From assembly GCA_016197155.1 (NCBI GenBank), contig JACPWF010000034.1, positions 1-59,547 on the forward strand: a DNA stretch of 59,547 nt, in the 5' to 3' direction. Below are positions 36,979-53,122 of this stretch, in pieces (the stretch's first letter is position 1; the number at the start of each line of letters is the position of its first letter). Both the position numbers and the translations under genes were made by a program. A model generated the notes under the pieces. It was not told the origin of the DNA, did not search any database, and saw only the letters and a list, made by a program, of their open reading frames with translations. The stretch comes from Candidatus Omnitrophota bacterium. GTDB lineage: Bacteria > Omnitrophota > Gorgyraeia > 2-02-FULL-51-18.

Positions 36979-37045
36979 TTTGTTTGCGTGCATTTGAATG
37001 AAAGTATACTTTACAAATAGACGTACTTAATGTATACTTCATCTC

Positions 37046-38182
37046 ATGGTCAATAGGCCCCAATGGAAAAAGAGGATTCATAACGCATGGAAAGAGGCGT
37101 CCATCGTCTGGCTTTCCGGCGTGCGCCGCTCGGGTAAGACGACGCTCGCGCGGAGTCTCGGAGGTCCGGAGGAGATTCTCTACGTCAACTGCGACCTTCC
37201 CGCGGCCGAGGAGCGGCTTCGAGACCCTGAGTTTTTCTTTCGAAGCTGTGAAAAATCCATTATCGTTTTCGACGAAATCCACCAACTTCGGGATCCGAGC
37301 CGTGTTCTCAAGATCGGCGCCGATCTCTTTCCGCGCCTGAGAATATTGGCCACCGGGTCCTCGACGCTTGCGGCCGGCAGAAAATTCAGGGACACGCTGA
37401 CGGGACGAAAGAGGCTCGTTCATCTTCTGCCGGTTCTCTGGACGGAGCTCGAAGATTTCTCCTGCAAGGATCTGACAAGACGGCTTTTTCAGGGCGGCTT
37501 GCCCCCGGCGCTTCTGACGGCCTCCAAAAAAAACTCTTTTTACCGGGAGTGGCTGGATTCCTTTTTCGCCCGGGACGTGCAAAAGCTTTTTTCGTTCCGC
37601 GACGCGGATAAGTTCAACGCGCTTTTTGAATATCTCCTCAGGCAGAGCTCGGGCCTGTTTGAGACTTCCAGGGCCGCGTCTGATCTCAAGATCAGCCGGT
37701 TGACGATTGAAAATCATCTCCAAGCGCTCGAGACGATGCACGCCATCGCGCGCATTCGGCCTTTTTTCGGAAGCGGACAGAGGGAGATCGTGAAAATGCC
37801 GAAAATCTACGGTTTTGACACGGGTTTCGTCACCTTTGCCCGCGGCTGGGATCCTCTGCGTCCGCAGGATCACGGCGTCTTGTGGGAGCATTTGGTTTTG
37901 GAATATTTACAGGCTTATTTTCCGGACGAGACCATCCGGTATTGGCGCGACAAGGCGGGAAGGGAAGTGGATTTTATTTTGGCCCGGCGCAGGGATCATG
38001 TGGATGCGATCGAATGCAAATGGAACCCGCTGGATTTCGATAGTTCGGCGCTTAGGGAATTTCGTTCTCATTACCCGAAAGGCGTAAATTACCTGGTGAC
38101 TCCTTCGGCAAGACCCGCTTACGTAAAACGTTATGGAAGTCTAACCGTTAAAATTTGCGAGCCTTCCAGCTTGGCCGCCTAA
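37046..38182 (+). CDS. AAA+ ATPase with C-terminal PD-(D/E)xK-like domain (COG1373/DUF4143 type)
   Basis: Walker A GVRRSGKTT, Walker B IIVFDEIH, and a C-terminal EVDFIL...AIECKW. TATACT lies 7 nt before the ATG and there is no Shine-Dalgarno. Confidence 0.8.
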   Translation: MVNRPQWKKRIHNAWKEASIVWLSGVRRSGKTTLARSLGGPEEILYVNCDLPAAEERLRDPEFFFRSCEKSIIVFDEIHQLRDPSRVLKIGADLFPRLRILATGSSTLAAGRKFRDTLTGRKRLVHLLPVLWTELEDFSCKDLTRRLFQGGLPPALLTASKKNSFYREWLDSFFARDVQKLFSFRDADKFNALFEYLLRQSSGLFETSRAASDLKISRLTIENHLQALETMHAIARIRPFFGSGQREIVKMPKIYGFDTGFVTFARGWDPLRPQDHGVLWEHLVLEYLQAYFPDETIRYWRDKAGREVDFILARRRDHVDAIECKWNPLDFDSSALREFRSHYPKGVNYLVTPSARPAYVKRYGSLTVKICEPSSLAA

Positions 38183-38311
38183 AGACCTCTCGCAGTCCGG
38201 CCTCACTCTCTTGTTGAAATTATCTATTAACATGGTCTTCGGTAGCGCCGCTTAAAATTCAGCAAACCCGCATAAATTCGTATATAATTTAGTCTCAATG
38301 GGAAAAACTCA

Positions 38312-40747
38312 ATGATGCTTTATCTCGTAAGCCTGTCTTTCGCCAGCTTGTTTTCTTTGGTTCTCGGAGCCTTCGTTTTCTATAAGAATCCGGCGAGCCG
38401 TGTGAATCGAACGTGGGGGCTTTCCTGTTTGGGTTGTTGCGTTTGGAGTTTGTTTTTTGTATTGATGATCCGCGCCCACACTTACAAAAGCGCGCTTTTA
38501 TTTTCCAAAATCTGTAATTTGTCAGCGGCATATATGATCGTTCTCGTCGCCCATTTTTGCAAAGAAGTCGCGAGCTTCAATACAAAAAAAATGGGGTTGA
38601 TCAAATTGGGATATTTGAACGGCGTTTTATTGACACTCTCGGCATTTACAGACTATTTTTGTTCCGCAAGGCCAATTTTAAATTTTGACTATTTTGTATC
38701 CGCCAGACCCGTCTACCATCTTTTCACGGCTCACTTCTTCTTTTATATTTTTTATTCCGAGTACGTCCTGATTAGAGGGATGGCCTATCTGTCCGAGGAG
38801 CGAAAGAATCAGATCAAATACATCATTGTCGCTCTGACCAGCGGTTATGTTGGCGGCGGTTTGACGTTTCTCCCTGCCTATGGAATCCCGTTTCAGCCTG
38901 TTTCCGTGCATTTTGTGTGGGTATACGCCGCAATCATCTCGTACGCTATTTTGAAGTATCAATTAATGGACATTAAGGTAGTAATCAAAAAGACCCTTTT
39001 TTATTCTTTGCTGGTTTTTTTGGTTTCCGCACTCTATTTTATGGCGGTTTTTATGACTCACAAACTATTGATAAGTCCCTGGGATCTGCAAACTTGTTTG
39101 ATGAATGGTTTAAAGGGAGTGGAAATTTTATCTCAAATGATTACAAAAAATTTGTTTACTCTTACCAGTTTTCTATGCGGTGTGGCGTCTATGGGTCTGG
39201 CCGTCTTTGGACTGATTGTTGGCAGAACGAAGGCCCAAAGACTGTTTATGGTTTTTAACGCGGCGGTTGCCATATGGGGTTTTGGAAATTTCGTTGCAGG
39301 TTCTTCCGAGACTTCTGCTGGGGCTGTTATTGGATGGAGATCCGCTTATATAGGAGGGTTCTTTTTAAGTGCCATTTTTTGTCATTTGACGCAGGTATTT
39401 TTTGAGATCAGAAATAGAAAAATTCTCTTCATTGCGTATCTGCAGGCGATTGTGTTTTCCTCAGCCATGGTCTTTCACCCGCAAAGTCTTGTTTCTCAAA
39501 CCAGGCTGGCTTTTGGCGTGCACTATAACGTGATTACCGGAATGATGGCTACGGCGATAGCGATGTTTTTATTGATAGTAATTATCACCTATAAAAATCT
39601 TTTAGAGTATTTGCAAGTAGCTACAGAAGGTCGCCAGACGCAAGCGAAATATTTTATTTTTGGTTTTGCGTTCGGGTTTATCGGAGGAGCAACAACTTTA
39701 TTACCTCCGTTTGGTATTGATGTCATTTACCCGGCGGGAAATCTGGGTGTTGGTATTTATGCATTTATTTTAGTGTACGCAATGTTTCGGCATCAGATTT
39801 TGGATGTGAGGATTGTAATAAAAAGGACCATTTTTTATTCGCTCACGACGCTGTTTATTTCCATAGCTTATATTTTGGTCATATTTGTACTGCATAAGTT
39901 ATTCCTATTGGAAAATATCATTAAACCCACGGTACCAAACAGCATTATTTTAGTTGTGTTGATAATGGTATTTTTGAAACCGGTAGAAATATTTTTGCAT
40001 AGATTTTTGGATAAGAAATTTTTTAAAGGCACCATTACGGAAATTGCTAAGCAAAAACAGCTTTTGGAAACAGAGCTCGAACGCCGCGAGCGCCTGAAAA
40101 GCGTCGGCATCCTCGCCGCCGGCATGGCGCACGAGATCAAAAATCCCATCACGGCGATCAAGACCTTCGCGGAGTATCTGCCGGCGAAGTACGACGACCC
40201 CGGCTTTCGGGAAAAGTTTTCCAAGATCATCGTCGAGGAATCCGAGCGCGTCTCAAGGATCGTGCAGGACCTTCTTTTATTTTCAAAGCCGTCCGAACCC
40301 CGCCGCTGTCTCTGCGACGTGCACCGGCTTTTGCGCGACACGCTCGACCTTTTGAGCGGGGATATTCTGAAAAATAAAATAACGGTCGTGACCGATTTTG
40401 ATCCCGCCGCCGGGAAAAGCCATGTCGACGCGGGCCAGATGAAGCAGGCGTTTCTCAATCTTCTCATGAACGCGATAGAGGCCATGCCAAACGGCGGCGC
40501 CCTTAAGGTTTCTACTTCTCTGACCGCTGATTTGGGTCTGCTGATCACCGTCTCCGACACGGGCCCCGGCATTTCCTCCGACAAACTCCCGCATCTTTTC
40601 GACCCTTTCTTTACGGACAAGGACGAGGGGACGGGTCTGGGCCTGGCCATCACGCATGCCATCATCGAGAAAAACGGGGGAAAGATCACCGTTCAAAGCG
40701 CATTCGGAAAAGGCGCGTCCTTTCTCATCACGCTTCCTCCGGCCTGA
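38312..40747 (+). CDS. sensor histidine kinase with two tandem 7TM-type membrane modules
   Basis: 811 aa with about 14 TM helices. The junction motif occurs twice (YAILKYQLMDIKVVIKKTLFYS and YAMFRHQILDVRIVIKRTIFYS). H-box AAGMAHEIKNPIT, and HATPase N, G1 and G2 boxes. Confidence 0.85.
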   Translation: MMLYLVSLSFASLFSLVLGAFVFYKNPASRVNRTWGLSCLGCCVWSLFFVLMIRAHTYKSALLFSKICNLSAAYMIVLVAHFCKEVASFNTKKMGLIKLGYLNGVLLTLSAFTDYFCSARPILNFDYFVSARPVYHLFTAHFFFYIFYSEYVLIRGMAYLSEERKNQIKYIIVALTSGYVGGGLTFLPAYGIPFQPVSVHFVWVYAAIISYAILKYQLMDIKVVIKKTLFYSLLVFLVSALYFMAVFMTHKLLISPWDLQTCLMNGLKGVEILSQMITKNLFTLTSFLCGVASMGLAVFGLIVGRTKAQRLFMVFNAAVAIWGFGNFVAGSSETSAGAVIGWRSAYIGGFFLSAIFCHLTQVFFEIRNRKILFIAYLQAIVFSSAMVFHPQSLVSQTRLAFGVHYNVITGMMATAIAMFLLIVIITYKNLLEYLQVATEGRQTQAKYFIFGFAFGFIGGATTLLPPFGIDVIYPAGNLGVGIYAFILVYAMFRHQILDVRIVIKRTIFYSLTTLFISIAYILVIFVLHKLFLLENIIKPTVPNSIILVVLIMVFLKPVEIFLHRFLDKKFFKGTITEIAKQKQLLETELERRERLKSVGILAAGMAHEIKNPITAIKTFAEYLPAKYDDPGFREKFSKIIVEESERVSRIVQDLLLFSKPSEPRRCLCDVHRLLRDTLDLLSGDILKNKITVVTDFDPAAGKSHVDAGQMKQAFLNLLMNAIEAMPNGGALKVSTSLTADLGLLITVSDTGPGISSDKLPHLFDPFFTDKDEGTGLGLAITHAIIEKNGGKITVQSAFGKGASFLITLPPA

Positions 40748-41230: not shown

Positions 41231-42385
41231 CTAGGGGATGGCCGATCCGATACGGTTCAGCGGCACGACGGACACCCGCTTGTCCAGCGCGTACTCAGTC
41301 TCCCCGGGGTATACCACCCATAAATGGGCCAACTCCAATTCGTCGATCGCGGCCTTCATCGACTGGGTCAAAGTCGGAGCGTCGCCGTATTTCGCTTCGA
41401 CGCCCCACAGCTTGCCGTTTCGCTGGAACACCAGATCCAATTCCCCTCCGGTATGCACGCCCCAGTAGAAAACTTCTTCCTGTCGGAGAGACAAGTGCTG
41501 GATGGCCTGTTCAATTGAGAATCCCTCCCATGAGGCCCCGAGCTTGGGATGAACAAGGAGATCCGCGCGGTTTTGCGCCGAGATCAGCGCATGGAAAAGC
41601 CCGGAATCCCTGAAGTATATTTTGGGCCGTCTGAGGAGTCTTTTTTTTGTGTTGTAAAACCAGGGCTGAAGCTGGCGGATTAAAAAGGTCCCGCAAAGAA
41701 TATCCAGGTAATGCCGCGCGGCCGTCTCCGAGGCGCCGAGACTGCGCGCGATCTCCGAGGCGTTGAAAATTTGGCCGTGGTAGTGGGCCAGCATGATCCA
41801 GAACCGGCGCAGGGTGCCGGCCGGAACGCGGATCCCCAGAGCCGGGACGTCCCTTTCAAGGAAGGTCGTGATGAAATCCTGGCGCCACGCGAACGAGGCC
41901 TGGTCGTTCTTTGACAGGAACGACCGAGGAAACCCGCCGCGGATCCAAAGTTTTTGATCAGATGGTTTGGGGAGGCTGTCCAATGAGAGGCCGCCCAGTT
42001 CGAGATAGGCGATGCGCCCTGCGAGCGACTCCGAACTTTGAGCCAGGAGACTTCCCGACGCGCTGCCGAGGATGAGATACTTGGCTTCCCTGTTTTTGTC
42101 GACAAGCACGCGCAAGATCGGAAAAAGCTCCGGTCTGCGTTGGATCTCATCGATGACGATGAGGCCTTTTAAGGATTCCAAGGCCAACAGGGGATTTTCG
42201 AACTGCGCCAAATCCCGTGGATTTTCAAGGTCAAAACGGTGGATGGGACGGAACCGGCTTTTCCTCGCCCACTGACGGGCCAGCGTGGTCTTCCCGCATT
42301 GCCTGGGCCCGACAATGGCGACAACCGGCGCTTCGCGAAATCGCCGCGCCAAAAACTGAAGTTCCTTTGTCCGCTCGATTTCCAT
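41231..42385 (-). CDS. AAA+ ATPase with C-terminal PD-(D/E)xK-like domain (COG1373/DUF4143 type)
   Basis: Walker A GPRQCGKTT, Walker B LIVIDEIQ, C-terminal ELDLVF...GVEAKY. On the minus strand, TATGCT lies 6 nt before the ATG. Confidence 0.8.
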   Translation of the reverse strand: MEIERTKELQFLARRFREAPVVAIVGPRQCGKTTLARQWARKSRFRPIHRFDLENPRDLAQFENPLLALESLKGLIVIDEIQRRPELFPILRVLVDKNREAKYLILGSASGSLLAQSSESLAGRIAYLELGGLSLDSLPKPSDQKLWIRGGFPRSFLSKNDQASFAWRQDFITTFLERDVPALGIRVPAGTLRRFWIMLAHYHGQIFNASEIARSLGASETAARHYLDILCGTFLIRQLQPWFYNTKKRLLRRPKIYFRDSGLFHALISAQNRADLLVHPKLGASWEGFSIEQAIQHLSLRQEEVFYWGVHTGGELDLVFQRNGKLWGVEAKYGDAPTLTQSMKAAIDELELAHLWVVYPGETEYALDKRVSVVPLNRIGSAIP

Positions 42386-42535: not shown

Positions 42536-42553
42536 TTGGTGTATACTCCTCCC

Positions 42554-43729
42554 ATGACAAGAAAGTACCTGAAACGCACACTTGAGCTTGAAATAAAAAA
42601 AGCGGCGCGGCAGTTTCCGGTCGTGGTCCTGACGGGGCCGCGCCAAACGGGCAAATCCACGCTCCTCAAGAAGCTGTTTCCGCGGCATCATTATGCGGAG
42701 CTGGATGATCCGCTGACCCGGCAGGCCATAAAAAGGGATCCGCAGCTTTTTCTTGAAAATCACGCACCCCCTTTGGTTCTTGACGAAATTCAGGAGTCGC
42801 CGAAGATACTGCCCTATATCAAAATGTGGGTTGACGCCAACCGGTCCAAAAACGGCCAGTTTATCCTGACCGGGTCGCAGGTATTTCCGGTGATGGCGGG
42901 CATTACCGAGTCGCTGGCCGGCCGGGCGGCGCTGTTTGAGCTTTTGGGATTTTCCTGGGAAGAACTTGGGAAGAAGTCCGATTCTTTCAAGGCCTGCTTT
43001 CATCAGATTTTTAAAGGCTTCTATCCCGATCCGGCCGTGCACGGCGTACAACCCGGCAATTACTACAGCGCTTATCTTAAAACTTATCTTGAGAGGGACA
43101 TCCGGCAAATCAAGTCCGTTCACGACCTCACGGTTTTTCATAATTTTCTTGAACTCGTAGCTTCCCGCGTGGGTTCGCTTTTGAATTTGAACGAGATCTC
43201 GAAAGAAAGCGGCATCAGCCACACCACGGCCCGGCAATGGCTGTCGCTTCTGGAAAGCACGCGCATCATTTATCTTTTACGGCCCTATTTCAGAAATATT
43301 TCCAAACGGGTGGTCAAAAGTCCCAAGATTTATTTCACGGACACAGGCCTTCTTTCGTATCTTCTTAAATTTGGCGGTCCGGAGGCTGTGGCGGCGGGTC
43401 CCATGGGCGGCGCTTTTTTTGAAAACATGGTGGTTGTCGAGCTTCTTAAGGAAAAATTTCATAGAAATAAAAGGGGGGAGCTTTATTTTTACAGGGACTC
43501 CAATCATAACGAAGTGGATGTTCTCATCGACGAGGGCATGAATAAAACGCTCATCGAAATTAAAATGGCTAAAACACTGCGTCCGGAGCATGCGGATTTT
43601 TTAAGCCGGTTCCAGAAGAAAATCCCTCATTCTTCCGCGTATCTGGTCAGCCTCTGCGGAGACCGCACCCGTCTTTTTAAAAATGTCTGGGCCATCCCCT
43701 GGTCCGATGCTCATGAGCTGTTGCATTGA
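42554..43729 (+). CDS. AAA+ ATPase with C-terminal PD-(D/E)xK-like domain (COG1373/DUF4143 type)
   Basis: Walker A GPRQTGKST, Walker B LVLDEIQ, C-terminal EVDVLI...LIEIKM. The start is taken at ATG 42554, 6 nt after TATACT (the ORF track gives TTG 42536). Confidence 0.8.
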   Translation: MTRKYLKRTLELEIKKAARQFPVVVLTGPRQTGKSTLLKKLFPRHHYAELDDPLTRQAIKRDPQLFLENHAPPLVLDEIQESPKILPYIKMWVDANRSKNGQFILTGSQVFPVMAGITESLAGRAALFELLGFSWEELGKKSDSFKACFHQIFKGFYPDPAVHGVQPGNYYSAYLKTYLERDIRQIKSVHDLTVFHNFLELVASRVGSLLNLNEISKESGISHTTARQWLSLLESTRIIYLLRPYFRNISKRVVKSPKIYFTDTGLLSYLLKFGGPEAVAAGPMGGAFFENMVVVELLKEKFHRNKRGELYFYRDSNHNEVDVLIDEGMNKTLIEIKMAKTLRPEHADFLSRFQKKIPHSSAYLVSLCGDRTRLFKNVWAIPWSDAHELLH

Positions 43730-44005
43730 TGGTTAAAAAAGCGCGGAGAGAAGCGTGGGTCGTCGCGAAGAGGCCCGGGGGCTCGAGGGGCCTACAAGAT
43801 ATGGTGGGCCAAGCGGCGCTCATTGCCATATACATGATTTGTTAGAACTGTTAAGTTTTCATCAAAAAACATTGACAGAGAATAAAGAATTAAGCTAGAC
43901 TCCTTCCTACGGGCAGACCCAAAAAAGAAGCCATTCAATAAGACCAAACGGAACATAAAGCGGGATAAAAGAACATAAGATTTTTTGTCCTAATCGGCGG
44001 TAAAA

Positions 44006-44257
44006 ATGAAGGTGATGGAAATGCAAATGAAAGAGGTTCATTCGAAGAACGGCGACAAGGTTTACACCGTGCCGGAGCTGGCGCGGTACCTGCGCATGCA
44101 GCCGCTCACGATTTACAAGCACGCCTCGAGCGGCAAACTGCCGGGTTTTAAGATCGGCTCCCACTGGCGTTTCAAGAAAAAAACCATCGACCGGTGGATT
44201 CACGAGCAGGAGCGGTCGCGCACTAAGACAAACGGAAATATTTTAACAAACCCATGA
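44006..44257 (+). CDS. excisionase-family helix-turn-helix DNA-binding protein
   Basis: YTVPELARYLRMQPLTIYKHASSGKLPGFKIGSHWRFKKKTIDRWI is the MerR/excisionase-type HTH pattern. The start is ambiguous among four in-frame ATGs. Confidence 0.7.
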   Translation: MKVMEMQMKEVHSKNGDKVYTVPELARYLRMQPLTIYKHASSGKLPGFKIGSHWRFKKKTIDRWIHEQERSRTKTNGNILTNP

Positions 44258-44301
44258 CCCGAGCGGGGAGGGTGGGTTTTTTGGTTTAGAAGGGTCGTTT
44301 A

Positions 44302-44358
44302 GTGTTTCATGATTTGTCTGGCAAGGTGGCCGTGGTAACAGGGGGATCCAAAATTTGA
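44302..44358 (+). pseudogene. 18-codon remnant of a short-chain dehydrogenase N-terminus
   Basis: VFHDLSGKVAVVTGGSKI*: the SDR Rossmann motif GKVAVVTGGS is cut off exactly where GC content drops. Confidence 0.5.
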
Positions 44359-44388
44359 AAAACCGGTTTTTATGAACATAACAACGTA

Positions 44389-45351
44389 ATGAATTACGAA
44401 AATAAGATATTACCTAGCTATCTTATAGAACCTTTGTTTGGAACTAGCAGAGACGGCAGTTCTCCATATGTCCCGACACTTGGAGAAGTAATAGTTGAGT
44501 GGTTAGACGCTATTAATTTTATTAAATATCCAACTCGCTGTTTGGCAGCTCTGAGCTTACTTTTTCATGGAATGACTTTTATATTATTAATAGTATATTT
44601 CGCAAAATTTATTTCAAAACCTAGCCTTATCTTCATGATAGCATCAATTTATTTCCTCGGAAATATTTATAATACGGTTTGGTATCATCGCTATTGTTCC
44701 CATGCGGCATATTCTTTTAAAAGAGCATGGTGCCCACAATTCTTTCTGTGGACGAACCCATTCTTTTTTAGAGAAGAGAGTTATGCCATACCTCATTTTA
44801 TCCATCATCAAAGAACCGAGAAACCCGGAGACCCGTATGGCCCACATTTGGGGTGGCTGGGTAGTTATTTAGCCTCAGAATCACAACAAAAAATGAATAC
44901 GAATATTACCAGAGATCAATACGATCTTTTAAAGGCTAAGGTAAAGCATATTGGCATAATACTTAATTCTTACCCTGAGTTCAAAAGGACTGGATCAGTA
45001 GAAAAAGTAGCGTTTTTTATTTTAAGAAGTATCTTTGCGCAGGTGCTCTATGTGTTAGTTTTTTACGCTCTTGGCGGAATCCCTTTCGTGCTTGCCTGGT
45101 ATGCAGCTGTCTTTATTATTTTCTTTCTGATTCGCGATTTCAATTGGCGTGGTCACGGAGGAAATTTCCGTAAAAAAAAGAAAGCGGGATGGGAATTCGA
45201 CACCAATAGTTATGCATTAAATCAACATTTTTATGGATATCTTGCATCAGAATGGCATGACAATCATCATAGATATCCAGCATCAGCCAATAATGGATTT
45301 TTGCCTGGCCAGACAGATGTTGCTTTTGCTTTTATAAAACTCTTGCACTGA
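44389..45351 (+). CDS. membrane fatty-acid desaturase (delta-9 acyl-CoA/acyl-lipid desaturase family, divergent)
   Basis: Three His boxes sit in the canonical order and spacing: HRYCSH, HFIHHQRTEKPGDP, EWHDNHHRYP. TM hairpins are present. The gene is AT-rich. Confidence 0.8.
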   Translation: MNYENKILPSYLIEPLFGTSRDGSSPYVPTLGEVIVEWLDAINFIKYPTRCLAALSLLFHGMTFILLIVYFAKFISKPSLIFMIASIYFLGNIYNTVWYHRYCSHAAYSFKRAWCPQFFLWTNPFFFREESYAIPHFIHHQRTEKPGDPYGPHLGWLGSYLASESQQKMNTNITRDQYDLLKAKVKHIGIILNSYPEFKRTGSVEKVAFFILRSIFAQVLYVLVFYALGGIPFVLAWYAAVFIIFFLIRDFNWRGHGGNFRKKKKAGWEFDTNSYALNQHFYGYLASEWHDNHHRYPASANNGFLPGQTDVAFAFIKLLH

Positions 45352-45534
45352 GTGGGGTTAGTTGAATCTATCATAGACGCCAAGCCTAAGTTTTGCATGG
45401 ATAGAAATTAAGTACGTTTAATCCGGAGAATAGTTATTCAGCTAAAATGGTAATAATACTGAAAATTCAGTTTTTGTGTAGGTTATGAGTCTAAGCCAAC
45501 TTTCTTGGCAGGCGTATTTATGGGCGGGGTTTTT

Positions 45535-46911
45535 ATGAAGGAGGATAGCGACGTGTTGGGATCTATAGATAGGCGGTCGGCCCCAAGGATTAGTTACCAT
45601 TCAAATATTAATGTTTGTAAGGATGTCCATGGCAACCTGCTTAATATATCGCCAAATGGATTAGCTTTTGTTACAAAAAATAGGCTCACGAAAGGCTTAA
45701 AAATAACTGTTGAAATTTCTCTTCCGCCAAGGAAACTAAATCTTGATTTGGAAATTAAATGGTGCAAGGAAAGCATCGATGAAAATTTCATTTGCGGAGC
45801 CGTGCTAGTTGCTTCAGAGGCAGAGATAAATCTTATACGAAAAGTTATGGTTATAACTGAGTTTCGAAGTGTGTTACGCAAGGTTAAAAATAAAGATCAT
45901 CGAAAATATATTTGTCGATTTGCCAAACACATCAAATTTTATATATCCGGACTTTTTGATTTAATAACAAACGTAGAGTCAAAAAATATATCGGAGAAAG
46001 ATATTCTGGGCAGGCTCGCTGAGCTTACCAATTCAATAGTTGTGGAAGGGGATCATCTGAGCAATCAGCTGTCAGATAGGCTTTTGATGAGTGCAATTAA
46101 AAAAGAATTTAGAATTTTGGTAAGCCCATGGGCATATAAGAGTTTGATTGTTAAAAGAAGTTATGACAAACCGCGCGGCTATCCCGGTGATTATAGGGTT
46201 ATGGAAGCGATTTATAACAAAAATATTATTTCGCCTAAAGCAGATAACCTCGGAAGATATTTTGATGAATATTTTCTGAACAATCCCTATGCGGAGGCGG
46301 TTCGAAATAGGAAGGATGTTTTAAGAGAGTATTTACGGACATTTATCTCTTCTAGAACGAATGTGCGAATATTGAATATAGCATGTGGTTCATGTCGCGA
46401 GGTTCGTGAACTTTTGTCCGATATTAATATGGTAACTAGCCTTGTGGGTAAAAAAGTGCTTATTTCCTGTCTCGATTGGGACGATGAGGCATTGGAATTT
46501 TCCAAGGCGGAACTTTGTAAAATAAACGCTTCTTCGGTTGAGTTAGAGTTCGTGAAGGAAGATATTTTTCAGATCTTTAAAAACAGGGATTTTTTTCAGA
46601 AACATGGTAAGTACGATTTGATATACAGTATTGGTTTAGCGGATTATTTGCCAGATCGTGTAATCAAAAAAATTGTAGAGAGCTCCTTTAACAACTTAAA
46701 TGTTAAAGGTACGCTTCTTTTAGCGCACAAAGATAAAGAAATCCGTTTTTCTCGTCTACCTCCGGAATGGTTTTGTGACTGGGAGTTCATTCTGAGAAAT
46801 CAAGAGGAGTTTATCAAGTTGGTTGCATCCGCGACTCGCGAAGCTTTTGACCTCTCTATTCAAAGGGATGCCACAGGGGACGTTTTTTTTACGGAAATAA
46901 TGAGATGCTAG
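45535..46911 (+). CDS. PilZ domain fused to class I SAM-dependent methyltransferase (PhcB-like?)
   Basis: PilZ motifs RRSAPR and NISPNGLAF. Methyltransferase motif I is ILNIACGSCRE, the acidic post-I motif is CLDWDDEA, and motif II is DLIYSIGLADYLPD. Upstream of these is KPRGYPGDYRVMEAIY. The start is uncertain: TTG 45505, ATG 45535, or GTG 45553 (preceded by AGGAGG). Confidence 0.75.
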   Translation: MKEDSDVLGSIDRRSAPRISYHSNINVCKDVHGNLLNISPNGLAFVTKNRLTKGLKITVEISLPPRKLNLDLEIKWCKESIDENFICGAVLVASEAEINLIRKVMVITEFRSVLRKVKNKDHRKYICRFAKHIKFYISGLFDLITNVESKNISEKDILGRLAELTNSIVVEGDHLSNQLSDRLLMSAIKKEFRILVSPWAYKSLIVKRSYDKPRGYPGDYRVMEAIYNKNIISPKADNLGRYFDEYFLNNPYAEAVRNRKDVLREYLRTFISSRTNVRILNIACGSCREVRELLSDINMVTSLVGKKVLISCLDWDDEALEFSKAELCKINASSVELEFVKEDIFQIFKNRDFFQKHGKYDLIYSIGLADYLPDRVIKKIVESSFNNLNVKGTLLLAHKDKEIRFSRLPPEWFCDWEFILRNQEEFIKLVASATREAFDLSIQRDATGDVFFTEIMRC

Positions 46912-46933
46912 ACCGTTTGAGATATTTTTTCCA

Positions 46934-49066
46934 ATGACTCCAATAGGCATTAGCGGGCTAATCAACTTTATTTCTAGTATTTTGTTAGGCATTTTTGTTT
47001 TATTTCGGAATCCCAAAGCGCCAACCAATAGGTCTTATTTTTATTTAAATTTTAGTGTTGCTTTTTTTAGCTTTTGGTATTTCTTTTGGCAACTTGCTTC
47101 CAACAAAGGTAGTGCGTTGCCACTTTTTAAACTCCTGACCTTGGGCATTATTTTCATCAACGTTACTTATTTGCATTTTGTTTTTAATTTTTTAAATATT
47201 TATCGGTCTAAAAAAACGTTCCTGTTAGTCTGTTATATAATAAACTTTTATTTCGTTTATTTAGATTTTTCTATGAATCTTTTCAGTGATTTACGACCAA
47301 AATATGGATTTGGCTATTGGCCTGTTGCCACACCTTACTTTAATATTTTTTTGATCTTTTGGTTGGTGCAATGTTTTTATGGTTTTTTCTTCTTACTAAG
47401 CCGTTTTAAAGACACCTCTGATACCTTGGAAAAAAAACAAATCAATTATTTTATAACGGCAGCTATTATAGGTTTTATAGGGGGATCAACGAATTGGCCC
47501 CTTTGGTATAACATACCGTTCCCACCTTATTTCAATATTCTTATAACTCTTTACATTGGCTTGGTAGCTTATGCCATTGTTAAGCACCAACTAATGGATA
47601 TCGAAGTTGCCATAAAGCGTACAGCTGTATTTGCGGGATTATTTGCGTTCGTATATGGCACCTTTACTGTGGTAACGATTATAGGCCAGGAATTTTTTAA
47701 ACGGTCACTTGGATGGAATCAGTGGACAGCATTAATTCCAACCGTTTTTGTAATTACTTTTGCCCTTCGCCCGCTAGAGATTTTCCTCACCAACGCCACG
47801 GAAAAATTTTTATTTCAAAAAAAGTACGACTACCGCGTGCTCCTCAAAACGTTCACCAACGAAATCCTCACCGTTTTGGATTTGAAAGAGTTGTGCGACC
47901 AGACCGTGGCGGAACTGGTGAAGATTTTGAAGCTCGAGGCGGCCAGCGTGATCCTGCTCGACAAAGACACGAAGCTGTACAAAATTATTTCAGCGATGGG
48001 CGTCAAAGATAAAAACATCGTTTTTAAAGACGAAGACGAGCTGATCGCGTTTCTCAAAACTTCCGGCCAGCCGATCGTGAAGGACAAGAGCGTCGATAAA
48101 ATCGAGGGCGACGGCGAGCTGAAAACCACATTTAAACAGCTGAATGCCCAGCTCTGCCTGCCGATCTCGCTCCACGATCAGCTGATCGGCGTCCTTTCTC
48201 TGGGCGCCAAAAAGTCCGGTGAGGAGTACACGCAGGAGGACATTGACATTTTGACGACGCTCGCGCGCACCGAGGCCATCGCCATCTCCAACGCCCGTCT
48301 CTTCGATGAGCTTTCCAAAACGCAGGCCGAGGCCGCCCAGCGCGAGAAAATGGCCGTGATCGGCACGCTCGCCGCGGGGATCAATCACGAGATCTGTAAT
48401 CCGCTGGGCATCGTTCGCGGCCAGTGCGAAATGTTCCTTTTGAATCTCCGCGACGGAATATTCGACAAAACCTCGAAAGACGAGCTTCTCAAAATATCCA
48501 GCGAGGTGATGAACAAGGTCATCAAGGAAACCGACCGCGCGACGGGCATCACCAAGCGCCTTTCCGGTTTCGCGAAACCCTCCAAGCGCAACGAGCTCGA
48601 GGAGGTTTTCGTAGAGAAAGAAGTGGGCGAGGTCCTAAACCTCATCGGCCACGATTTGAAACTGAGCAACATCGACGTGCAGACCGATTTTCCGCTTCAC
48701 TTCCCGCCGATCCTGGCTGACAAGAAACAGATCCAGGAGGTTCTCTTCAACATCATCCGCAACGCCGCGCAGGCGATGGACGAGTCGCGCCGCGGACGCA
48801 TCCTCGTCTCCGGCGTCTCCGAAAACGGCTCGACGATGATCCGGATCGCCGACAATGGCAGTGGCATCCCGCCGGACAAGATTAGTCAAATCTTTAACCC
48901 CTTCTACACGACCAAGGCCCCCGGCAAAGGCACGGGCCTGGGCCTTTTCATCGTGAAACAGGTGGTCGAGCGCAATAAAGGCGTCATCGGCGTCGAAAGC
49001 CAGGCCGGCGCCGGCACGACCTTCACTTTGAGTTTTCCGAAAGTTTCGGAACTGGCCGCGGCCTGA
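46934..49066 (+). CDS. 7TM-GAF sensor histidine kinase
   Basis: AT-rich 7TM N-terminus ending in YAIVKHQLMDIEVAIKR. GAF-like middle region (LCLPISLHDQLIGVLSLG). H-box AAGINHEICNPL, plus a HATPase domain. Confidence 0.85.
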   Translation: MTPIGISGLINFISSILLGIFVLFRNPKAPTNRSYFYLNFSVAFFSFWYFFWQLASNKGSALPLFKLLTLGIIFINVTYLHFVFNFLNIYRSKKTFLLVCYIINFYFVYLDFSMNLFSDLRPKYGFGYWPVATPYFNIFLIFWLVQCFYGFFFLLSRFKDTSDTLEKKQINYFITAAIIGFIGGSTNWPLWYNIPFPPYFNILITLYIGLVAYAIVKHQLMDIEVAIKRTAVFAGLFAFVYGTFTVVTIIGQEFFKRSLGWNQWTALIPTVFVITFALRPLEIFLTNATEKFLFQKKYDYRVLLKTFTNEILTVLDLKELCDQTVAELVKILKLEAASVILLDKDTKLYKIISAMGVKDKNIVFKDEDELIAFLKTSGQPIVKDKSVDKIEGDGELKTTFKQLNAQLCLPISLHDQLIGVLSLGAKKSGEEYTQEDIDILTTLARTEAIAISNARLFDELSKTQAEAAQREKMAVIGTLAAGINHEICNPLGIVRGQCEMFLLNLRDGIFDKTSKDELLKISSEVMNKVIKETDRATGITKRLSGFAKPSKRNELEEVFVEKEVGEVLNLIGHDLKLSNIDVQTDFPLHFPPILADKKQIQEVLFNIIRNAAQAMDESRRGRILVSGVSENGSTMIRIADNGSGIPPDKISQIFNPFYTTKAPGKGTGLGLFIVKQVVERNKGVIGVESQAGAGTTFTLSFPKVSELAAA

Positions 49067-49068: not shown

Positions 49069-49437
49069 ATGCCCAGAATTTTGGCGATCGACGATGAAGT
49101 GGAATTCACCGGGCTCATTCAAAGTTATTTCGGCGCGCGCGGGTACGAGGTGCTTGTGGCCAATCAGGGCGATGAGGGCCTGCGCCTGGCGAAAAAAGAA
49201 AAACCGGACGTGTGTCTCATTGACCTCAAGATGCCGGGCATCCACGGGGATGATGTCCTCCGGGAAATTCTTCTGGCCCAACCCAAGGCCAAGTGCATCA
49301 TGATCACGGCCTCCGAGGGAGAGGGCAAGACGCGCGAGCGGCTCATGGAGATGGGGGCGTACACCTGCTTCGACAAGCCGCTCACGTCGCTGAAGGATTT
49401 GGAGGCGAAGATTAAAGAGGCGATGAATAAAAAGTAA
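49069..49437 (+). CDS. single-domain CheY-like response regulator
   Basis: 122 aa. Acidic pocket ILAIDDE, phospho-acceptor context CLIDLKMPG, and T and K positions (MITAS, FDKP). Confidence 0.9.
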   Translation: MPRILAIDDEVEFTGLIQSYFGARGYEVLVANQGDEGLRLAKKEKPDVCLIDLKMPGIHGDDVLREILLAQPKAKCIMITASEGEGKTRERLMEMGAYTCFDKPLTSLKDLEAKIKEAMNKK

Positions 49438-49442
49438 AGGCG

Positions 49443-49822
49443 GGTATCAGGGAATCAGAGGATCAGGATGCAGGATACCAGGACATCAGAATATCAGGAA
49501 AAAGAAAAAATAAAGCCGGTCGCCGGTTTTGAAAAGCTCTGGGTGTGGCAAAAGGCGCACAAACTGATGCAGGAAATTCAAGGGTTTTAATGTAGCGAGG
49601 AAAGAAGCCGGTGAAACTCAAAACCATATTCGCACAATGCTCGGCAAAGAGTATCTGAACGCGAAGCGCTCTCAGGATTTGGTGGAGCAGTATGAAGAGG
49701 TGATTAGAGGGATTAATGGTTATGTTCGGTACGTTCGGGAAAAAAAGGCGCTGAGAGGTAGAATTACCTGATATCCTGAAACCTGATATCCTGCTTCCCG
49801 ATTTCCTGATCCCCTGATAACC
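49443..49822 (+). mobile_element. IVS-like element: about 57-nt imperfect inverted arms of ATCAGG-type repeats enclosing a decayed four-helix-bundle gene
   Basis: The left arm (49443-49498) and the reverse complement of the right arm (49766-49822) align over their whole length with a few mismatches and indels. The terminal ATATCAGG / CCTGATAT and GGTATCAGGG / CCCCTGATAACC segments pair. Confidence 0.6.
49510..49771 (+). pseudogene. four-helix-bundle protein (23S rRNA intervening-sequence protein / Avd-like family), internally deleted and frameshifted
   Basis: The N-terminal piece is FEKLWVWQKAHKLMQEIQGF*. The C-terminal piece ARKEAGETQNHIRTMLGKEYL...INGYVRYVREKK lies in another frame. The central helices are missing. 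Confidence 0.6.
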
Positions 49823-49845
49823 GAACTAACGCGGAAGAGGTTCTT

Positions 49846-50229
49846 ATGCGAAAACGCCCCAGGCTCCTTGTCGTCGACAACGAAATCGACATCTGCAATT
49901 TCGTGAAATCCTTTTTCCAGGTGAGAGGCTTTAAAGTGGTCACGGCCCTAAACGGCGACGAGGCGATGGAAAAATTGGCGGCCGAAAAACCGGACATCGT
50001 CATTTTGGACATCATGATGCGTACCGCCCGGGAAGGTTTGGATTACCTGCCGAAAATTAAAAAAGCCCTGCCCTCCGCGAAGGTCCTCATGATCACCGCC
50101 GTCGAAGACAACGAAGCGATTGACACCGCGAAAAAAATGGGCGCGGACGACTACATCACCAAGCCCCTCGTTCTCGAATATCTGGAGACGACCGTACTGG
50201 AAAAGATTAAAAGTCTGAGAACAAGTTAG
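49846..50229 (+). CDS. single-domain CheY-like response regulator
   Basis: 127 aa with LLVVDNE, IVILDIMM, MITAV and ITKP receiver landmarks. Confidence 0.9.
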   Translation: MRKRPRLLVVDNEIDICNFVKSFFQVRGFKVVTALNGDEAMEKLAAEKPDIVILDIMMRTAREGLDYLPKIKKALPSAKVLMITAVEDNEAIDTAKKMGADDYITKPLVLEYLETTVLEKIKSLRTS

Positions 50230-50361: not shown

Positions 50362-51534
50362 ATGATCCGAGTCAAGGACCCGGTCGTTCTTCTTAAAATC
50401 ATCACCCGCTTTATCGACCGGCAGATGGGCGTGACGCACGTCGCGGTGATTCTCTACGACAAAAAGCGCGGTGCCTACACGCTCATCGACAGCAAAGGCG
50501 AGGGCGGCGCCAAGATTCCCATCGGCTACGTGAAAGTCCCCGCGGACAATCCGATCGTCAATTTTTTTAAATCCTCCCACAACGGGGCCTTCGCGCGCCG
50601 CGAGGCGCTGGTCTACAAAGAGATCGACCCCATCCAAAATTTTGAGATCCTCGTGAACAAAAAAGAGGGCCGCGCGATCCATTACGAGGACATTAAAAAA
50701 CAGATGAATTATCTGCGCGCGGCGGTGTGCGTGCCGAGTTTTTACAAAAAGGAACTGATCGGCATTCTCATTTTGGGCGAAAAGCTTTCGGGCGACGTTT
50801 ACCACGAGGAGGAGATCAGCCTCTTCGTGACGCTGGCCAACGACGTGGCGATGGCCGTGAAAAACGCCGAGTTGATCCACGATTTGAGAACGGCGTACGA
50901 GAAAGAGCACAGCCTTTTTATCAATACGTCCATTGCCCTCGCGACCGCGATCGACGCGCGCGACCGCTACACGCACGGCCACTCCGAGCGCGTCTCGCAC
51001 TACAGCCTTGTCATCGTGAAGGAGCTCATTGACTCGGGAAAAATGCAGTTTGACCGCGAATTCATGGAAACGGTCCAGCTCTCGGGGCTTTTGCATGATG
51101 TGGGAAAGATCGGGATTCGGGATGAGATTTTAAATAAGCCCGCCAAACTCACCGGCGAAGAATTTGAAATCATGAAAACCCACGTGAAGATCGGCGCCAG
51201 CATCGTCAAACCCGTGAAGGGCCTGAAGCACCTGGAGGACGGCATCCTGTATCATCACGAACGCTTTGACGGGGGAGGCTATCCGTTTGGGCTGAAGGGG
51301 AAGGACATTCCCATTATCGGGAGGATCGTGAGCGTGGCCGACACTTACGACACCATCGTGACGGCGCGTTCCTATAAAGAGGCCGAGGCCGCGGAGGCCG
51401 CTTTTGAAGAAATGAAACGCTCGTCCGGCGCTCAGCTCGACCCCGAAATCGTCGAGGCCTTTCACCGCGCGTACAAAAAAGGAAAAATCACGCGCCGCGA
51501 GTACCTCAGCTTCGATTTTTCAAAAATACACTAA
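50362..51534 (+). CDS. GAF-like domain + HD-GYP c-di-GMP phosphodiesterase
   Basis: HGHSERVSHYS...LLHDVGKIGI...HHERFDGGGYPFGL...VADTYDT. The reading frame stays open upstream to 50251, so the N-terminus is uncertain. Confidence 0.85.
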   Translation: MIRVKDPVVLLKIITRFIDRQMGVTHVAVILYDKKRGAYTLIDSKGEGGAKIPIGYVKVPADNPIVNFFKSSHNGAFARREALVYKEIDPIQNFEILVNKKEGRAIHYEDIKKQMNYLRAAVCVPSFYKKELIGILILGEKLSGDVYHEEEISLFVTLANDVAMAVKNAELIHDLRTAYEKEHSLFINTSIALATAIDARDRYTHGHSERVSHYSLVIVKELIDSGKMQFDREFMETVQLSGLLHDVGKIGIRDEILNKPAKLTGEEFEIMKTHVKIGASIVKPVKGLKHLEDGILYHHERFDGGGYPFGLKGKDIPIIGRIVSVADTYDTIVTARSYKEAEAAEAAFEEMKRSSGAQLDPEIVEAFHRAYKKGKITRREYLSFDFSKIH

Positions 51535-53122
51535 ACGCCGTCCCTTTTCCCGATCTGCTTTCCACCTCGATCTTCCCGCCGTGTTCCTTAATGATGCCGT
51601 GCACAATCGAAAGTCCCAGGCCCGTTCCGGATTCCTTCGTCGTGAAAAAGGGGTCAAAGATGTGGGGGAGCTGGTCTTCCGCGATCCCACAGCCGGTGTC
51701 GGAGACAGTGGTCAGTAGACAGGAGTCAGCAGTCAGGGACGTGGAAATCGTGAGCGTGCCGCCGCCCGGCATGGCCTGGATGCCGTTCAGGAAAAGATTC
51801 AGAAACGCCTGTTTCAACTGATTTTTATCCAGCGCCAATTCCGCATCCGCGCCGTAATTTTTGACGACGTTGATCCGATGCTCCAGCAGATTTTTATTCA
51901 GAAGGGCCAGCGTGTCATCGATGATCGGGCAAAGATGCTGACGCCGGAGCTCGAGCTCCTTGGGTTTTGAAAAATCAAGAAGCTGTTGGACGATATTGTT
52001 CACCCGGTCCACCTCATCAACCACAATTCTCTTAAACTTTTCTCTAAACTCCGGATCACCGTGTTTATAGGGCAAATATTCCGCGAAGGTTTTGATGGAC
52101 GTGAGAGGATTTTTGATCTCATGGGCCATCCCCGCGGCGAGGGTCGCCACGGATTTCATCCGGTCCTGTTTCTGGGCCTCGATTTTAAAGAGCTCGTTTT
52201 CGCGCAGGATTTTTTCAGGATCCATTTTGAAAAAATATTTGTCGAGCGTGTTTTGAATCCTCAGGCGCAAAGGATTGAAAACCAGCGCGATGAAGAGAGA
52301 GGCCATGAGCGCCACGACGATTGACCGGTAGCCGAGATAGGATTGGAAAAGGCGTTCGCTGATTAAAATAATGAAGAGATAAATAGCCGTCATGATGAAA
52401 ATAAGCGAGGAATAAATAAAGCCTCTTCGGACGATGATGTCGATGTCCAGCAACCTATGGCGCACGATGGCATAGGTGATCAGCGAAGAAAAGGCGCCTA
52501 CGAAGACGTAGCCAAACGGATAAATAGGCACATTAAACTTTGGAAGGTAATCCATGGCGGCGATGACAAAAATGCCGATGGACAGGGCGTAGTATTTGAA
52601 ACGCTGATAGTTTTCGTCCTGTAGTCTGCTTTTGGCGATAGCCGAGGCTTTAACCAAAACGTGGATAATGCGGCTGGCCAAGGCAAAAGTAAACAGCACG
52701 TAAGCCAGCATCAGCGGGCCGCCCCGAGGGTAGTAGCCCCAGTAAAACCGCTCTATTTTTGGCATGTAAAGGGGCGACGTGTATAGGCTTATCAGACTGA
52801 AAATACAAAAAAGAACGCTGAAGCAAGCCATGCGGACGTCGAATTTTTCTTTCAAATCGCCCAAGGCTTCGAGCGTGAAAAAATAGATGGTTGGCGATAA
52901 AAGAACAGCCATGGCGTGACCAAGTCTGAGAAAATTTAAAATTTGATTGAAATCACTTAGCGAATAAGCAAGCCCATAGGAGAAAAGCCATCCAAAGCTC
53001 CAAAGTGTAACCAGAAAACAAAGCTGATTTTTTTTCTTCGTCGGGTTGGACAGGAGGACAAATATTCCCAAAGCGATGTTGTAAATCGAAACAATAAAAT
53101 TGGGAATAGAGTAGGGGTTCAT
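51506..53122 (-). CDS. 7TM sensor histidine kinase
   Basis: 538 aa. The 7TM N-terminus ends in YAIVRHRLLDIDIIVRR. H-box AAGMAHEIKNPLT, plus a HATPase domain. ATGA overlap with the upstream kinase. Confidence 0.85.
   Translation of the reverse strand: MNPYSIPNFIVSIYNIALGIFVLLSNPTKKKNQLCFLVTLWSFGWLFSYGLAYSLSDFNQILNFLRLGHAMAVLLSPTIYFFTLEALGDLKEKFDVRMACFSVLFCIFSLISLYTSPLYMPKIERFYWGYYPRGGPLMLAYVLFTFALASRIIHVLVKASAIAKSRLQDENYQRFKYYALSIGIFVIAAMDYLPKFNVPIYPFGYVFVGAFSSLITYAIVRHRLLDIDIIVRRGFIYSSLIFIMTAIYLFIILISERLFQSYLGYRSIVVALMASLFIALVFNPLRLRIQNTLDKYFFKMDPEKILRENELFKIEAQKQDRMKSVATLAAGMAHEIKNPLTSIKTFAEYLPYKHGDPEFREKFKRIVVDEVDRVNNIVQQLLDFSKPKELELRRQHLCPIIDDTLALLNKNLLEHRINVVKNYGADAELALDKNQLKQAFLNLFLNGIQAMPGGGTLTISTSLTADSCLLTTVSDTGCGIAEDQLPHIFDPFFTTKESGTGLGLSIVHGIIKEHGGKIEVESRSGKGTAFSVFLKNRS

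Follow-up and report, generated by a model that had tools for sequence, protein, structure and literature searches.

We analysed the whole of a 59,547-bp contig from Candidatus Omnitrophota (hereafter the window; the relatives of the kinase described below are named Candidatus Omnitrophota or Omnitrophica) and conclude that a low-GC block from ~44,350 to ~47,824 is probably an allele of an exchangeable cassette within a signalling locus found throughout the Omnitrophota. The replaceable stretch runs from the end of a gene for an HTH_17 DNA-binding protein to residue ~205-300 of a histidine kinase with a seven-transmembrane (7TM) sensor. The evidence comprises a step in GC content, most visible at third codon positions (GC3), that persists under controls; the conservation of the surrounding locus; covariation of enzymes and sensors; conflicting trees for two parts of the kinase; an intact short-chain dehydrogenase (SDR) gene in the related locus L088; and a swap of the cassette between loci L090 and L093. 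From these observations we infer recombination as the mechanism, together with the direction and age of the exchange. The block and its two edges contain the following features:

44006..44257, + strand: HTH_17 (excisionase-family) DNA-binding protein (Pfam HTH_17, E 8.7e-15; TIGR01764, 46 bits)
44302..44358, + strand: remnant of a FabG-like SDR, 18 codons (GTG start, VFHDLSGKVAVVTGGSKI, stop at 44,356-44,358)
44389..45351, + strand: membrane fatty-acid-desaturase-like protein, 320 amino acids (aa), with His boxes HRYCSH, HFIHH and HDNHH
45535..46911, + strand: fusion of a PilZ domain and a class I S-adenosylmethionine (SAM)-methyltransferase-like domain, 458 aa (Pfam PilZ; profile matches)
46934..47824, + strand: low-GC 5' part of the kinase gene, encoding the HisKA_7TM sensor and transmembrane (TM) helices 6-7 with the linker (Pfam HisKA_7TM; GC3 0.34)
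47825..49066, + strand: high-GC 3' part of the kinase gene, encoding GAF, HisKA (H485) and HATPase_c (Pfam; GC3 0.78)

The background of the contig, taken from 1-31 kb, has a GC content of 0.55-0.62 and gene GC3 values of 0.65-0.82, and the right half is patchy. Compositional heterogeneity there extends beyond the cassette, as genes in 31000-38200 have intermediate GC3 values (0.58-0.64, versus 0.65-0.82 in 1-31 kb); these include apparent housekeeping genes, among them an asd-like gene that adjoins the locus in relatives too. At the left edge of the block, GC falls from 0.49 to 0.37 with a likelihood change point at nt 44,350, and GC3 falls from ~0.7 to 0.3; the GC profile of the window gives 0.52 for 44,000-44,299 and 0.36 for 44,300-44,599. 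At the right edge, GC3 changes in the kinase frame at nt 47,824, at codon ~297, with a support interval of only 9 nt (47,821-47,830), and the values for the kinase open reading frame (ORF) are 0.34 before this point and 0.78 after it. A first-pass annotation of this DNA had placed the drop at ~44350, just past an SDR stub, which agrees with our change point. Its right edge, at 47760-47800, was correctly put inside the kinase ORF, and the step itself lies 30-60 nt further to the right.

The shift is one of codon choice. When expected GC3 was calculated from amino-acid composition and the contig's own codon usage, the trough segments gave 0.68-0.73 against 0.29-0.35 observed, with z values of -8 to -17. 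Amino-acid composition, which the first-pass annotation had named as an explanation to be checked, is thereby ruled out as the cause. Observed GC3 is 0.29-0.32 in the desaturase-like gene, 0.345 in the PilZ-methyltransferase gene, 0.29 for kinase residues 1-205, 0.33 for residues 206-280 and 0.77 for residues 301-710, and the synonymous shift in the trough is seen for all 18 amino acids that have synonymous codons. Codon usage peculiar to membrane proteins is likewise ruled out (SecY-like and other multi-pass proteins, 0.68-0.83 in TM segments). A SecY-like gene at 1147-2505 has a GC3 of 0.79, or 0.83 within its predicted TM segments, three further multi-pass membrane proteins of the contig have 0.68-0.73, and the TM segments of its housekeeping membrane proteins have 0.70-0.83. 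In relatives, the genes for BacA, a CDP-alcohol phosphatidyltransferase and a VTT protein are all near background GC3. The low-GC block is a genuine change of codon usage.

The HTH_17 gene, with a background-like GC3 of 0.71, is conserved and borders the cassette slot on the left; the related loci L001, L003, L004, L085, L086, L087, L167, L090 and L113 all open with it. Behind it lies the 18-codon SDR remnant, which the first-pass annotation had rightly recognized. The SDR cofactor pattern [KR][VIT][AV][VIL][VI]TG[GA][ST] has a single occurrence in all six reading frames of the window and none in 200 shuffles; it lies 6-7 residues past the start codon, as it does in the intact SDRs of related loci, and the remnant matches the N-termini of those 245-255-aa proteins (tblastn E 0.006-0.07). 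Of the SDR signatures it retains GKVAVVTGGS only, and the rest of TGxxxGxG and the catalytic YxxxK are gone; the stub is a remnant, not a gene. A GGATCC (BamHI) site at 44,346-44,351 falls exactly at the left joint. We dismissed it as a cloning scar, as it represents the Gly-Ser codons of the SDR motif, and its position is probably a coincidence.

Locus L088, whose kinase core is 74% identical to that of the window, shows what this site looks like when the SDR gene is complete. Its contig opens with the 3' end of HTH_17, continues with a short spacer resembling the window's and then carries an intact 255-aa SDR, which occupies exactly the site of the 18-codon remnant. Homology between the two breaks off at ~44,281-44,350 and returns at ~47,534, with the left joint 48 nt into the SDR gene, at ~44,350. 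The intact SDR at the site of the remnant therefore indicates that an SDR-headed cassette was replaced in the window's lineage. The first-pass annotation had claimed that resident DNA was replaced and had suggested a search for an intact SDR gene in relatives; the L088 gene, directly after the HTH_17 3' end, bears it out on both counts. No integrase or transposase genes were found in 44,258-49,066 and no flanking repeats; the window as a whole is devoid of tRNA genes, and promoters and terminators are no more numerous than chance predicts. Insertion of a mobile element was rejected on these grounds.

The kinase belongs by its domains, collinearity and neighbourhood to an Omnitrophota orthogroup of 7TM-GAF histidine kinases of ~710 aa. 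PF16927 (HisKA_7TM) matches residues 12-223 with 37.6 bits (cut-off 28.6), and the core matches GAF_2 with 42 bits and HATPase_c with 87 bits. The HisKA match, at 20 bits, is below its cut-off, and H485, in the box INHEICNPL, is invariant. Over 96-100% of its length the protein aligns collinearly with more than 100 homologues of 690-730 aa; the exact sequence is carried by no other record. Residues 1-~205 are variable and the TM6-7/linker region up to the motif LFQKKYDY is conserved. The GC3 step lies inside this motif, in which L293, F294, Q295, K296, Y298, D299 and Y300 are invariant or nearly so.

The surrounding locus has a conserved order: a kinase with two 7TM modules (2x7TM kinase), a variable slot, HTH_17, one or more enzyme genes, the 7TM-GAF kinase, two response regulators and a GAF-HD-GYP protein, with further 7TM kinases, a regulator and an HTH-cupin protein on the opposite strand. 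The window has every part, and the same neighbourhood is seen in L001, L002-4, L085, L086, L087, L167 and many of L088-L166. The genes directly downstream of the kinase are:

49069-49437 and 49846-50229, + strand: single-domain response regulators (Pfam Response_reg; background composition)
50362-51534, + strand: predicted GAF-HD-GYP cyclic di-GMP (c-di-GMP) phosphodiesterase (HD_5, E 7.8e-30; HHERFDGGGYP; background composition)

They keep the same order in relatives and are 66-79% identical to those of L001, L003 and L085. Compared with the window, HTH_17, the kinase core, the response regulators and the HD-GYP protein are 75-79% identical in L085, 66-76% in L001 and L003, and 47-58% in L086 and L087. 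The window's sensor follows a different order, with 39% identity to L085, 70% to L001, 56% to L003, 54% to L086 and 49% to L087, and the PilZ-methyltransferase has no homologue in L085. More generally, the kinase core is 74-77% identical to many Omnitrophota kinases whose sensors are 35-45% identical to that of the window. A metagenome scan with a family-specific linker alignment yielded 79 loci, among which 43 distinct loci hold both sensor and core.

Across these 43 loci, the sensor type follows the upstream enzyme family, not the phylogeny of the kinase core. The ten sensors closest to the window's (40-66% identical) all have the same PilZ-methyltransferase family encoded upstream, and their cores are 43-74% identical. 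Where the closest cores (68-75%) occur with other enzymes (ICMT-like, SDR, F10, F16, F27, F43, F47), the sensors are 17-29% identical. Mean sensor identity is 0.32-0.39 for pairs of loci sharing an enzyme family versus 0.22-0.25 for other pairs, a contrast that holds in every core-identity bin containing same-family pairs. A sensor that merely evolves fast was rejected as an explanation, as sensor and core identities are similar in same-cassette pairs (for instance 0.55/0.54 and 0.53/0.46).

Trees of the two kinase parts point in the same direction. We built neighbour-joining bootstrap trees from 102 full-length homologues, separately for residues 1-205 and 301-710; the first-pass annotation had expected such halves to disagree, and they do. 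In the N-terminal tree, the window falls in a 13-member clade together with P0002, P0003 and ten clade-B proteins, at a bootstrap of 100. In the C-terminal tree, those ten fall in a 27-member clade B (bootstrap 90) and the window lies outside it in 199/200 replicates. These splits are incompatible, so the histories of sensor and core conflict.

A whole-cassette difference between otherwise similar loci was found in one JGI metagenome (Ga0080064). L090 and L093 have a common HTH_17, and their DNA is 88.7% identical from kinase residue ~208 onward, which suggests sister species rather than one population. Their kinases are 85-100% identical over residues 241-708 and 15-33% over residues 1-200, and the intervening enzyme genes are unrelated. 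The GC3 change points, at residues ~216-224, coincide with the homology break (residues ~208-240). Two hallmarks of a polymorphic synthase/receptor locus are present: a variable block that contains enzymes and ends inside the kinase, seen in window/L088 and in L090/L093, and covariation of enzyme and sensor that is independent of core phylogeny, seen in the 43 loci and the trees.

The composition trough is also found in the relatives. Sensor GC3 is below core GC3 in 42/43 distinct loci (Wilcoxon p 4e-12), with means of 0.33 for the sensor, 0.39 for the linker and 0.50 for the core; it is below that of the downstream genes in 35/35 loci and depends weakly on background (slope 0.23). L087, whose kinase core and HD-GYP protein are ~47-52% identical to the window's, has a background of 0.62-0.69, a methyltransferase-like gene of 0.24 and a kinase that goes from 0.20-0.33 over residues 1-270 to 0.53-0.72 thereafter. 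The corresponding values in L085 are 0.29 for a PilZ-desaturase, 0.30 for a ketoacyl synthase, 0.22 for an ICMT-like protein, 0.17-0.38 for the sensor and ~0.57 for the core, and the trough profile of L003 reads 0.40, 0.28-0.48 and 0.67-0.73. All four HisKA_7TM kinases of the window have a sensor of lower GC3. Change points in relatives are often sharp and lineage-specific, lying -113 to +237 aa from the LFQKKYDY motif, which fits separate crossover events. Since distant relatives have the trough in common, low GC3 is no evidence of a recent or outside origin. It is a family-wide property of these cassettes, which are AT-rich at synonymous sites whatever their type and in all lineages sampled, and the first-pass annotation, which had taken it as a mark of foreign DNA, does not hold on this point.

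Taken as an exchange of alleles, the observations would fit together as follows. An older cassette headed by a FabG-like SDR, similar to that of L088, would have been replaced in the window's lineage by an incoming cassette with the desaturase, the PilZ-methyltransferase and a 'type I' 7TM sensor, most probably through recombination between alleles of the same locus. The right crossover would lie in LFQKKYDY, the best-conserved stretch of the kinase, with reading frame and architecture kept; an allelic crossover is likeliest in the best-conserved DNA, which would explain both the position of the joint and the preserved frame. The same joint offers a natural splice point for engineered chimeric sensor kinases. 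The AT-richness itself has two candidate explanations: a pool of cassettes with a composition of its own may be re-imported faster than amelioration proceeds, or the divergence between alleles may block homologous recombination and hence GC-biased conversion, an effect described for bacterial genes (PMC4450053). Among the 43 loci, none has a sharper step or a larger contrast than the window (GC3 ~0.31-0.34 versus 0.78), as might be expected if the joint were fairly young and the genome GC-rich.

Several findings weigh against this account. The protein-phylogeny breakpoint, at residues ~205-215, lies ~85 codons upstream of the GC3 step at residue ~297, and the step, which the first-pass annotation had taken as the recombination boundary, does not coincide with that breakpoint in the window. 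The intervening residues 206-297 are clade-A-like (distance 0.16-0.25, versus 0.5-1.2 to clade B) yet AT-rich, and a single crossover therefore works only with a clade-A donor. Either the donor genome itself belonged to clade A, where P0002/L001 is the closest one known, or the trough is partly maintained in place. The nearest database sensor, that of P0002, is only 70% identical, a distance at which no donor can be named and the event cannot be dated. Furthermore, the window sensor is as far from clade B (0.69-0.87) as the core is (0.68-1.0), and vertical retention of an old sensor type may account for these equal distances. 7TM kinases without adjoining enzyme genes are also AT-rich in the sensor, hinting at a more general cause, and in L146 and L152 GC3 declines gradually across the enzyme genes and not as a block. 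Finally, the assignment of the methyltransferase itself draws on sub-threshold matches.

Some of these points are what one would expect if the cassette were old and vertically inherited, with no exchange here and with low GC3 as a maintained local equilibrium, an explanation we consider unlikely but worth serious attention. Alleles too far apart to recombine would escape GC-biased conversion or efficient codon selection and drift AT-rich, while the flanks would recombine and stay GC-rich; recombining bacterial genes do have higher GC3 (PMC4450053), although the differences reported there concern core genes and are not known to reach 0.45. The universality of the trough (42/43 loci, and 35/35 against downstream genes), its weak tracking of background, the gradients in L146 and L152, the AT-richness of residues 206-297 despite their clade-A protein sequence, the involvement of all four HisKA_7TM kinases of the window (those without enzyme genes included) and the equidistance of sensor and core from clade B all speak for it. 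Against it speak the SDR remnant and the intact L088 SDR at the same site, which show replacement in this lineage, the whole-cassette swap between the near-identical cores of L090 and L093, and steps that are sharp and placed at lineage-specific positions. The equilibrium is compatible with an exchange of alleles, to which it would add a reason for the cassettes staying AT-rich.

Recent horizontal transfer from an AT-rich organism, producing a new chimeric kinase, is close to what the first-pass annotation had proposed, and we regard it as improbable. The window resembles a classical genomic island in its atypical composition, its sharp borders and the truncated gene at its left edge, and the largest contrast of the 43 loci (GC3 ~0.31 versus 0.78), the 9-nt support interval and the conflict between N- and C-terminal trees would suit such an event. 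Unlike a classical island, however, the block is without integrase, transposase, tRNA or flanking repeats, it consists of an allele of a locus present in every relative, and its composition anomaly is common to the orthologous segments of distant relatives, including orthologues 50% identical. Architecture and gene order are ancestral and phylum-wide, and the best relatives of all the cassette genes sit in the same slot of other Omnitrophota loci. The 'foreign' DNA of the first-pass annotation is thus better described as another allele of the same locus. Its in-frame recombination with a resident kinase core stands as far as the in-frame joint and the conflicting histories are concerned, but not as a new chimeric kinase, given >100 homologues with the same architecture. 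An assembly chimera, in which two co-occurring Omnitrophota populations were joined at conserved sequence, is highly improbable. The assembly is of the metagenome type, the exact kinase is on no other record, and the right joint falls in the most conserved motif, the easiest site for a mis-join; on the other hand, a chimera would require a pair of joints at this site and further ones in the other kinases, the two sides would have only about a dozen bases in common at the motif, given their codon usage, the same pattern recurs in independent NCBI, ENA, JGI and Logan assemblies, and synteny is continuous on both sides.

The two enzymes of the cassette differ in their ancestry. The product of 44389..45351 has the three His boxes and the multi-pass membrane character of a fatty-acid desaturase, and its homologues carry the source names stearoyl-CoA desaturase or fatty-acid desaturase. 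Over 311 aa it matches residues 152-461 of P0122 with 62% identity. P0122 is a PilZ-desaturase fusion, encoded at the head of the L085/L167 cassette type (HTH_17, PilZ-desaturase, ketoacyl synthase, ICMT-like protein and a different sensor type); the window copy is without the PilZ part. No Pfam family matches at E <= 0.01, and the match to the NCBIfam DesA-family model reaches 25 bits against a cut-off of 400, so that the protein is best described as a divergent desaturase-like protein. Its best relative by sequence sits in another cassette type, which points to a different cassette ancestry, and the combination of desaturase and PilZ-methyltransferase is absent from the other 46 loci. The proposal of the first-pass annotation that the putative signal synthase and its sensor were acquired as one unit is supported by covariation for the methyltransferase and the sensor, and not for the desaturase.

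For the second enzyme (alternative start possible at TTG 45505), the PilZ domain is clear, with PF07238 at 27.3 bits (cut-off 22.5) and the motifs RRSAPR and NISPNG, which correspond to RxxxR and (D/N)xSxxG. The methyltransferase-like domain has sub-threshold Pfam matches (Methyltransf_31, 24.5 bits versus a cut-off of 27) and a motif-I-like ILNIACGSC, and many relatives carry PF13847 or PF12147. A search of the PDB with the single sequence found nothing; with the family profile it gave two weak matches, the SAM methyltransferase 1wzn (E 6.7e-4) and the Alg44 PilZ domain (E 1.4e-3). Domain calls made in the first-pass annotation are thus confirmed for HisKA_7TM, GAF, HATPase_c, PilZ, Response_reg and HD_5, and hold for the methyltransferase and the desaturase only in this qualified form. 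We detected 525 homologues of the PilZ-methyltransferase, and all members with a source name are from Omnitrophota. Some relatives are fused to HTH_17 (P0335 and P0337; 532-551 aa) and others to a receiver domain (P0347, P0349 and P0359; 587 aa), fusions that connect the enzyme with two-component signalling and with the regulator beside it. P0297, 37% identical to the window protein, bears the JGI name 3-hydroxypalmitic-acid-methyl-ester (3-OH-PAME) biosynthesis, PhcB-type, which as an annotation is a lead, not a test. On this sequence evidence, the protein is a candidate c-di-GMP-controlled signal- or lipid-modifying enzyme.

Larger cassettes occupy the same interval in other loci. In L113, L124, L130, L145, L146, L152, L154, L155, L163, L116 and L088, the stretch between HTH_17 and the kinase holds a fatty-acid synthase/polyketide synthase (FAS/PKS)-like set of 5-8 genes, with two ketoacyl synthases, an acyl carrier protein (ACP), a FabG-like SDR (245-255 aa), an extended-SDR reductase, a nitroreductase-like protein and a flavin adenine dinucleotide (FAD) oxidoreductase of ~485 aa. 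GC3 declines toward the kinase in these sets.

It is quite possible, if somewhat short of probable, that the cassette enzymes synthesize a membrane-soluble lipid signal or modify one, perhaps a fatty-acid methyl ester, and that the matched 7TM sensor detects it. The kinase, the two response regulators and the HD-GYP protein would then alter c-di-GMP, the PilZ domain of the enzyme would feed back on signal production, and alternative cassettes would represent distinct signalling specificities. A lesser possibility is that the enzymes remodel membrane lipids and the 7TM kinase senses the altered membrane, in a homeostatic loop such as that formed by DesK/DesR and the des desaturase of Bacillus subtilis. 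The lipid-type enzymes of the cassettes (desaturase, ketoacyl synthases, ACP, FabG-like SDR and ICMT/PEMT-like methyltransferase) and the wholly membrane-embedded sensor suit such a loop, and covariation is also expected if the sensor reads the membrane product of its own enzymes. A housekeeping homeostat would not, however, be expected to undergo wholesale replacement between close relatives in one habitat or to exist in at least eight enzyme versions among cores 68-75% identical, PilZ and HD-GYP point to a behavioural switch, and one methyltransferase relative bears a PhcB-type name.

In the literature that we found, HisKA_7TM is described from archaeal two-component systems and from archaeal and eukaryotic histidine kinases, and no description of this locus in Omnitrophota was found. 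A close parallel in layout is comQXPA of Bacillus subtilis, where polymorphism extends over the signal-making genes and the 5' membrane-sensor part of the kinase gene but spares the 3' kinase part and the regulator, and where alternative alleles coexist among close relatives (PMC6334282, PMC4008528). As there, the variable block in the window has its in-frame end within the kinase, where the sensor gives way to the core. In the Bacillus system, by contrast, ComQ produces the signal ComX, a prenylated peptide, and ComP, a member of another family, has 8-10 TM helices. The Omnitrophota locus has lipid-type enzymes, HisKA_7TM followed by GAF, and an output of HD-GYP and PilZ, its alleles differ in entire enzyme sets and not in sequence alone, and its role in signalling is putative.

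In the Ralstonia solanacearum species complex, phcBSR(Q) encodes the SAM methyltransferase PhcB, which makes methyl 3-hydroxymyristate or -palmitate, and the membrane kinase PhcS, followed by response regulators, and the grouping of PhcB and PhcS reflects the type of signal, not strain phylogeny (PMC11960443, PMC8578825). The window likewise has a methyltransferase, a membrane kinase and two response regulators with the same kind of enzyme-sensor covariation. It differs in the N-terminal PilZ domain of the enzyme and in the sensor family, and no LysR-type PhcA partner was seen; the likeness to PhcB lies in gene order, in this covariation and in the JGI name of P0297. The Rpf/diffusible signal factor system of Xanthomonas (RpfF, RpfC, RpfG) combines a fatty-acid-type signal, a membrane kinase, an HD-GYP output and downstream PilZ proteins (PMC3749722, PMC4159695). 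The locus resembles it in bringing together lipid enzymes, a membrane kinase, an HD-GYP protein and a PilZ domain, but it has no RpfF-type crotonase, its HD-GYP protein carries GAF and not a receiver, and its PilZ domains are fused to enzymes. We read this resemblance as analogy, not membership. In the staphylococcal agr groups, the hypervariable stretch covers part of agrB, agrD and the sensor half of agrC, and the kinase half of agrC and agrA are conserved. That system, unlike the present one, is Gram-positive, uses a peptide thiolactone signal and is built from unrelated proteins.

More tentatively, and with some doubt on our part, the locus may be a phylum-wide polymorphic lipid-signal 'dialect' system, in which at least eight unrelated cassettes, ranging from a single PilZ-methyltransferase to a seven-gene FAS/PKS-like set and each with its matched 7TM receptor, would be exchanged as units and kept AT-rich by long-term balancing selection and suppressed recombination. 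The synonymous-site trough would then itself mark specificity loci. Omnitrophota is an uncultured phylum of very small cells that is known mainly from metagenomes. If the cassette reading is right, the locus would provide its first directly testable candidate for cell-cell or kin-specific signalling, with named enzyme-receptor pairs. It would also extend the in-frame sensor swapping of comQXP, agr and phcBS to a far larger scale, with whole biosynthetic sets variable. For the prediction of genomic islands, it would call for caution: where a GC3 trough is inherited by a class of loci, composition alone both mis-dates and mis-assigns the event.

Other parts of the locus vary as well. Upstream of the cassette lies a second kinase with an internal composition step:

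38312..40747, + strand: kinase with two HisKA_7TM modules, HisKA and HATPase_c (GC3 step, Pfam)

Its GC3 rises in frame from 0.45 to 0.73 at nt 40,075 (support 40,051-40,102), and its orthologues in L003 and L085 have the same GC3 profile. The sensor is hypervariable relative to L003 and L085, the latter aligning over the C-terminal ~350 aa alone, and the gene has no adjoining enzyme gene. On the opposite strand, the tandem 538-aa 7TM kinases at 51506-53122 (-) and 53119-54735 (-) have a sensor part lower in GC3; at the orthologous position the drop is far stronger in L087 (0.15-0.27 versus 0.6-0.7) and in L085. Between the 2x7TM kinase and HTH_17, the window carries a pair of divergently oriented AAA_14/DUF4143 ATPase genes at 41231-42385 (-) and 42536-43729 (+), a site that in relatives is taken by a PDDEXK_3 nuclease (L085/L167) or a pseudouridine synthase (L002/L004), with toxin-antitoxin pairs and a Y1 transposase nearby in L085. 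It is a second variable slot of the locus.

Downstream of the kinase, a 408-nt spacer (49438-49845) parts the two response-regulator genes, which are contiguous in relatives. It contains a broken four-helix-bundle gene of the 23S-rRNA-intervening-sequence type, which reads AGFEKLWVWQKAHKLMQEIQGF, then a stop, then ETQNHIRTMLGKEYL... in another frame, and has inverted arrays of short ATCAGG-like units on either side. Intact four-helix-bundle genes occur elsewhere in L146, L088 and L130, and the spacer therefore looks like a small decayed insertion. In L116, two 7TM-GAF kinases of the same family (711 and 696 aa) lie ~4 kb apart within 9377-15495, with a transposase-like ORF and a fragment of an FAD oxidoreductase between them, possibly a cassette duplication or an exchange in progress.

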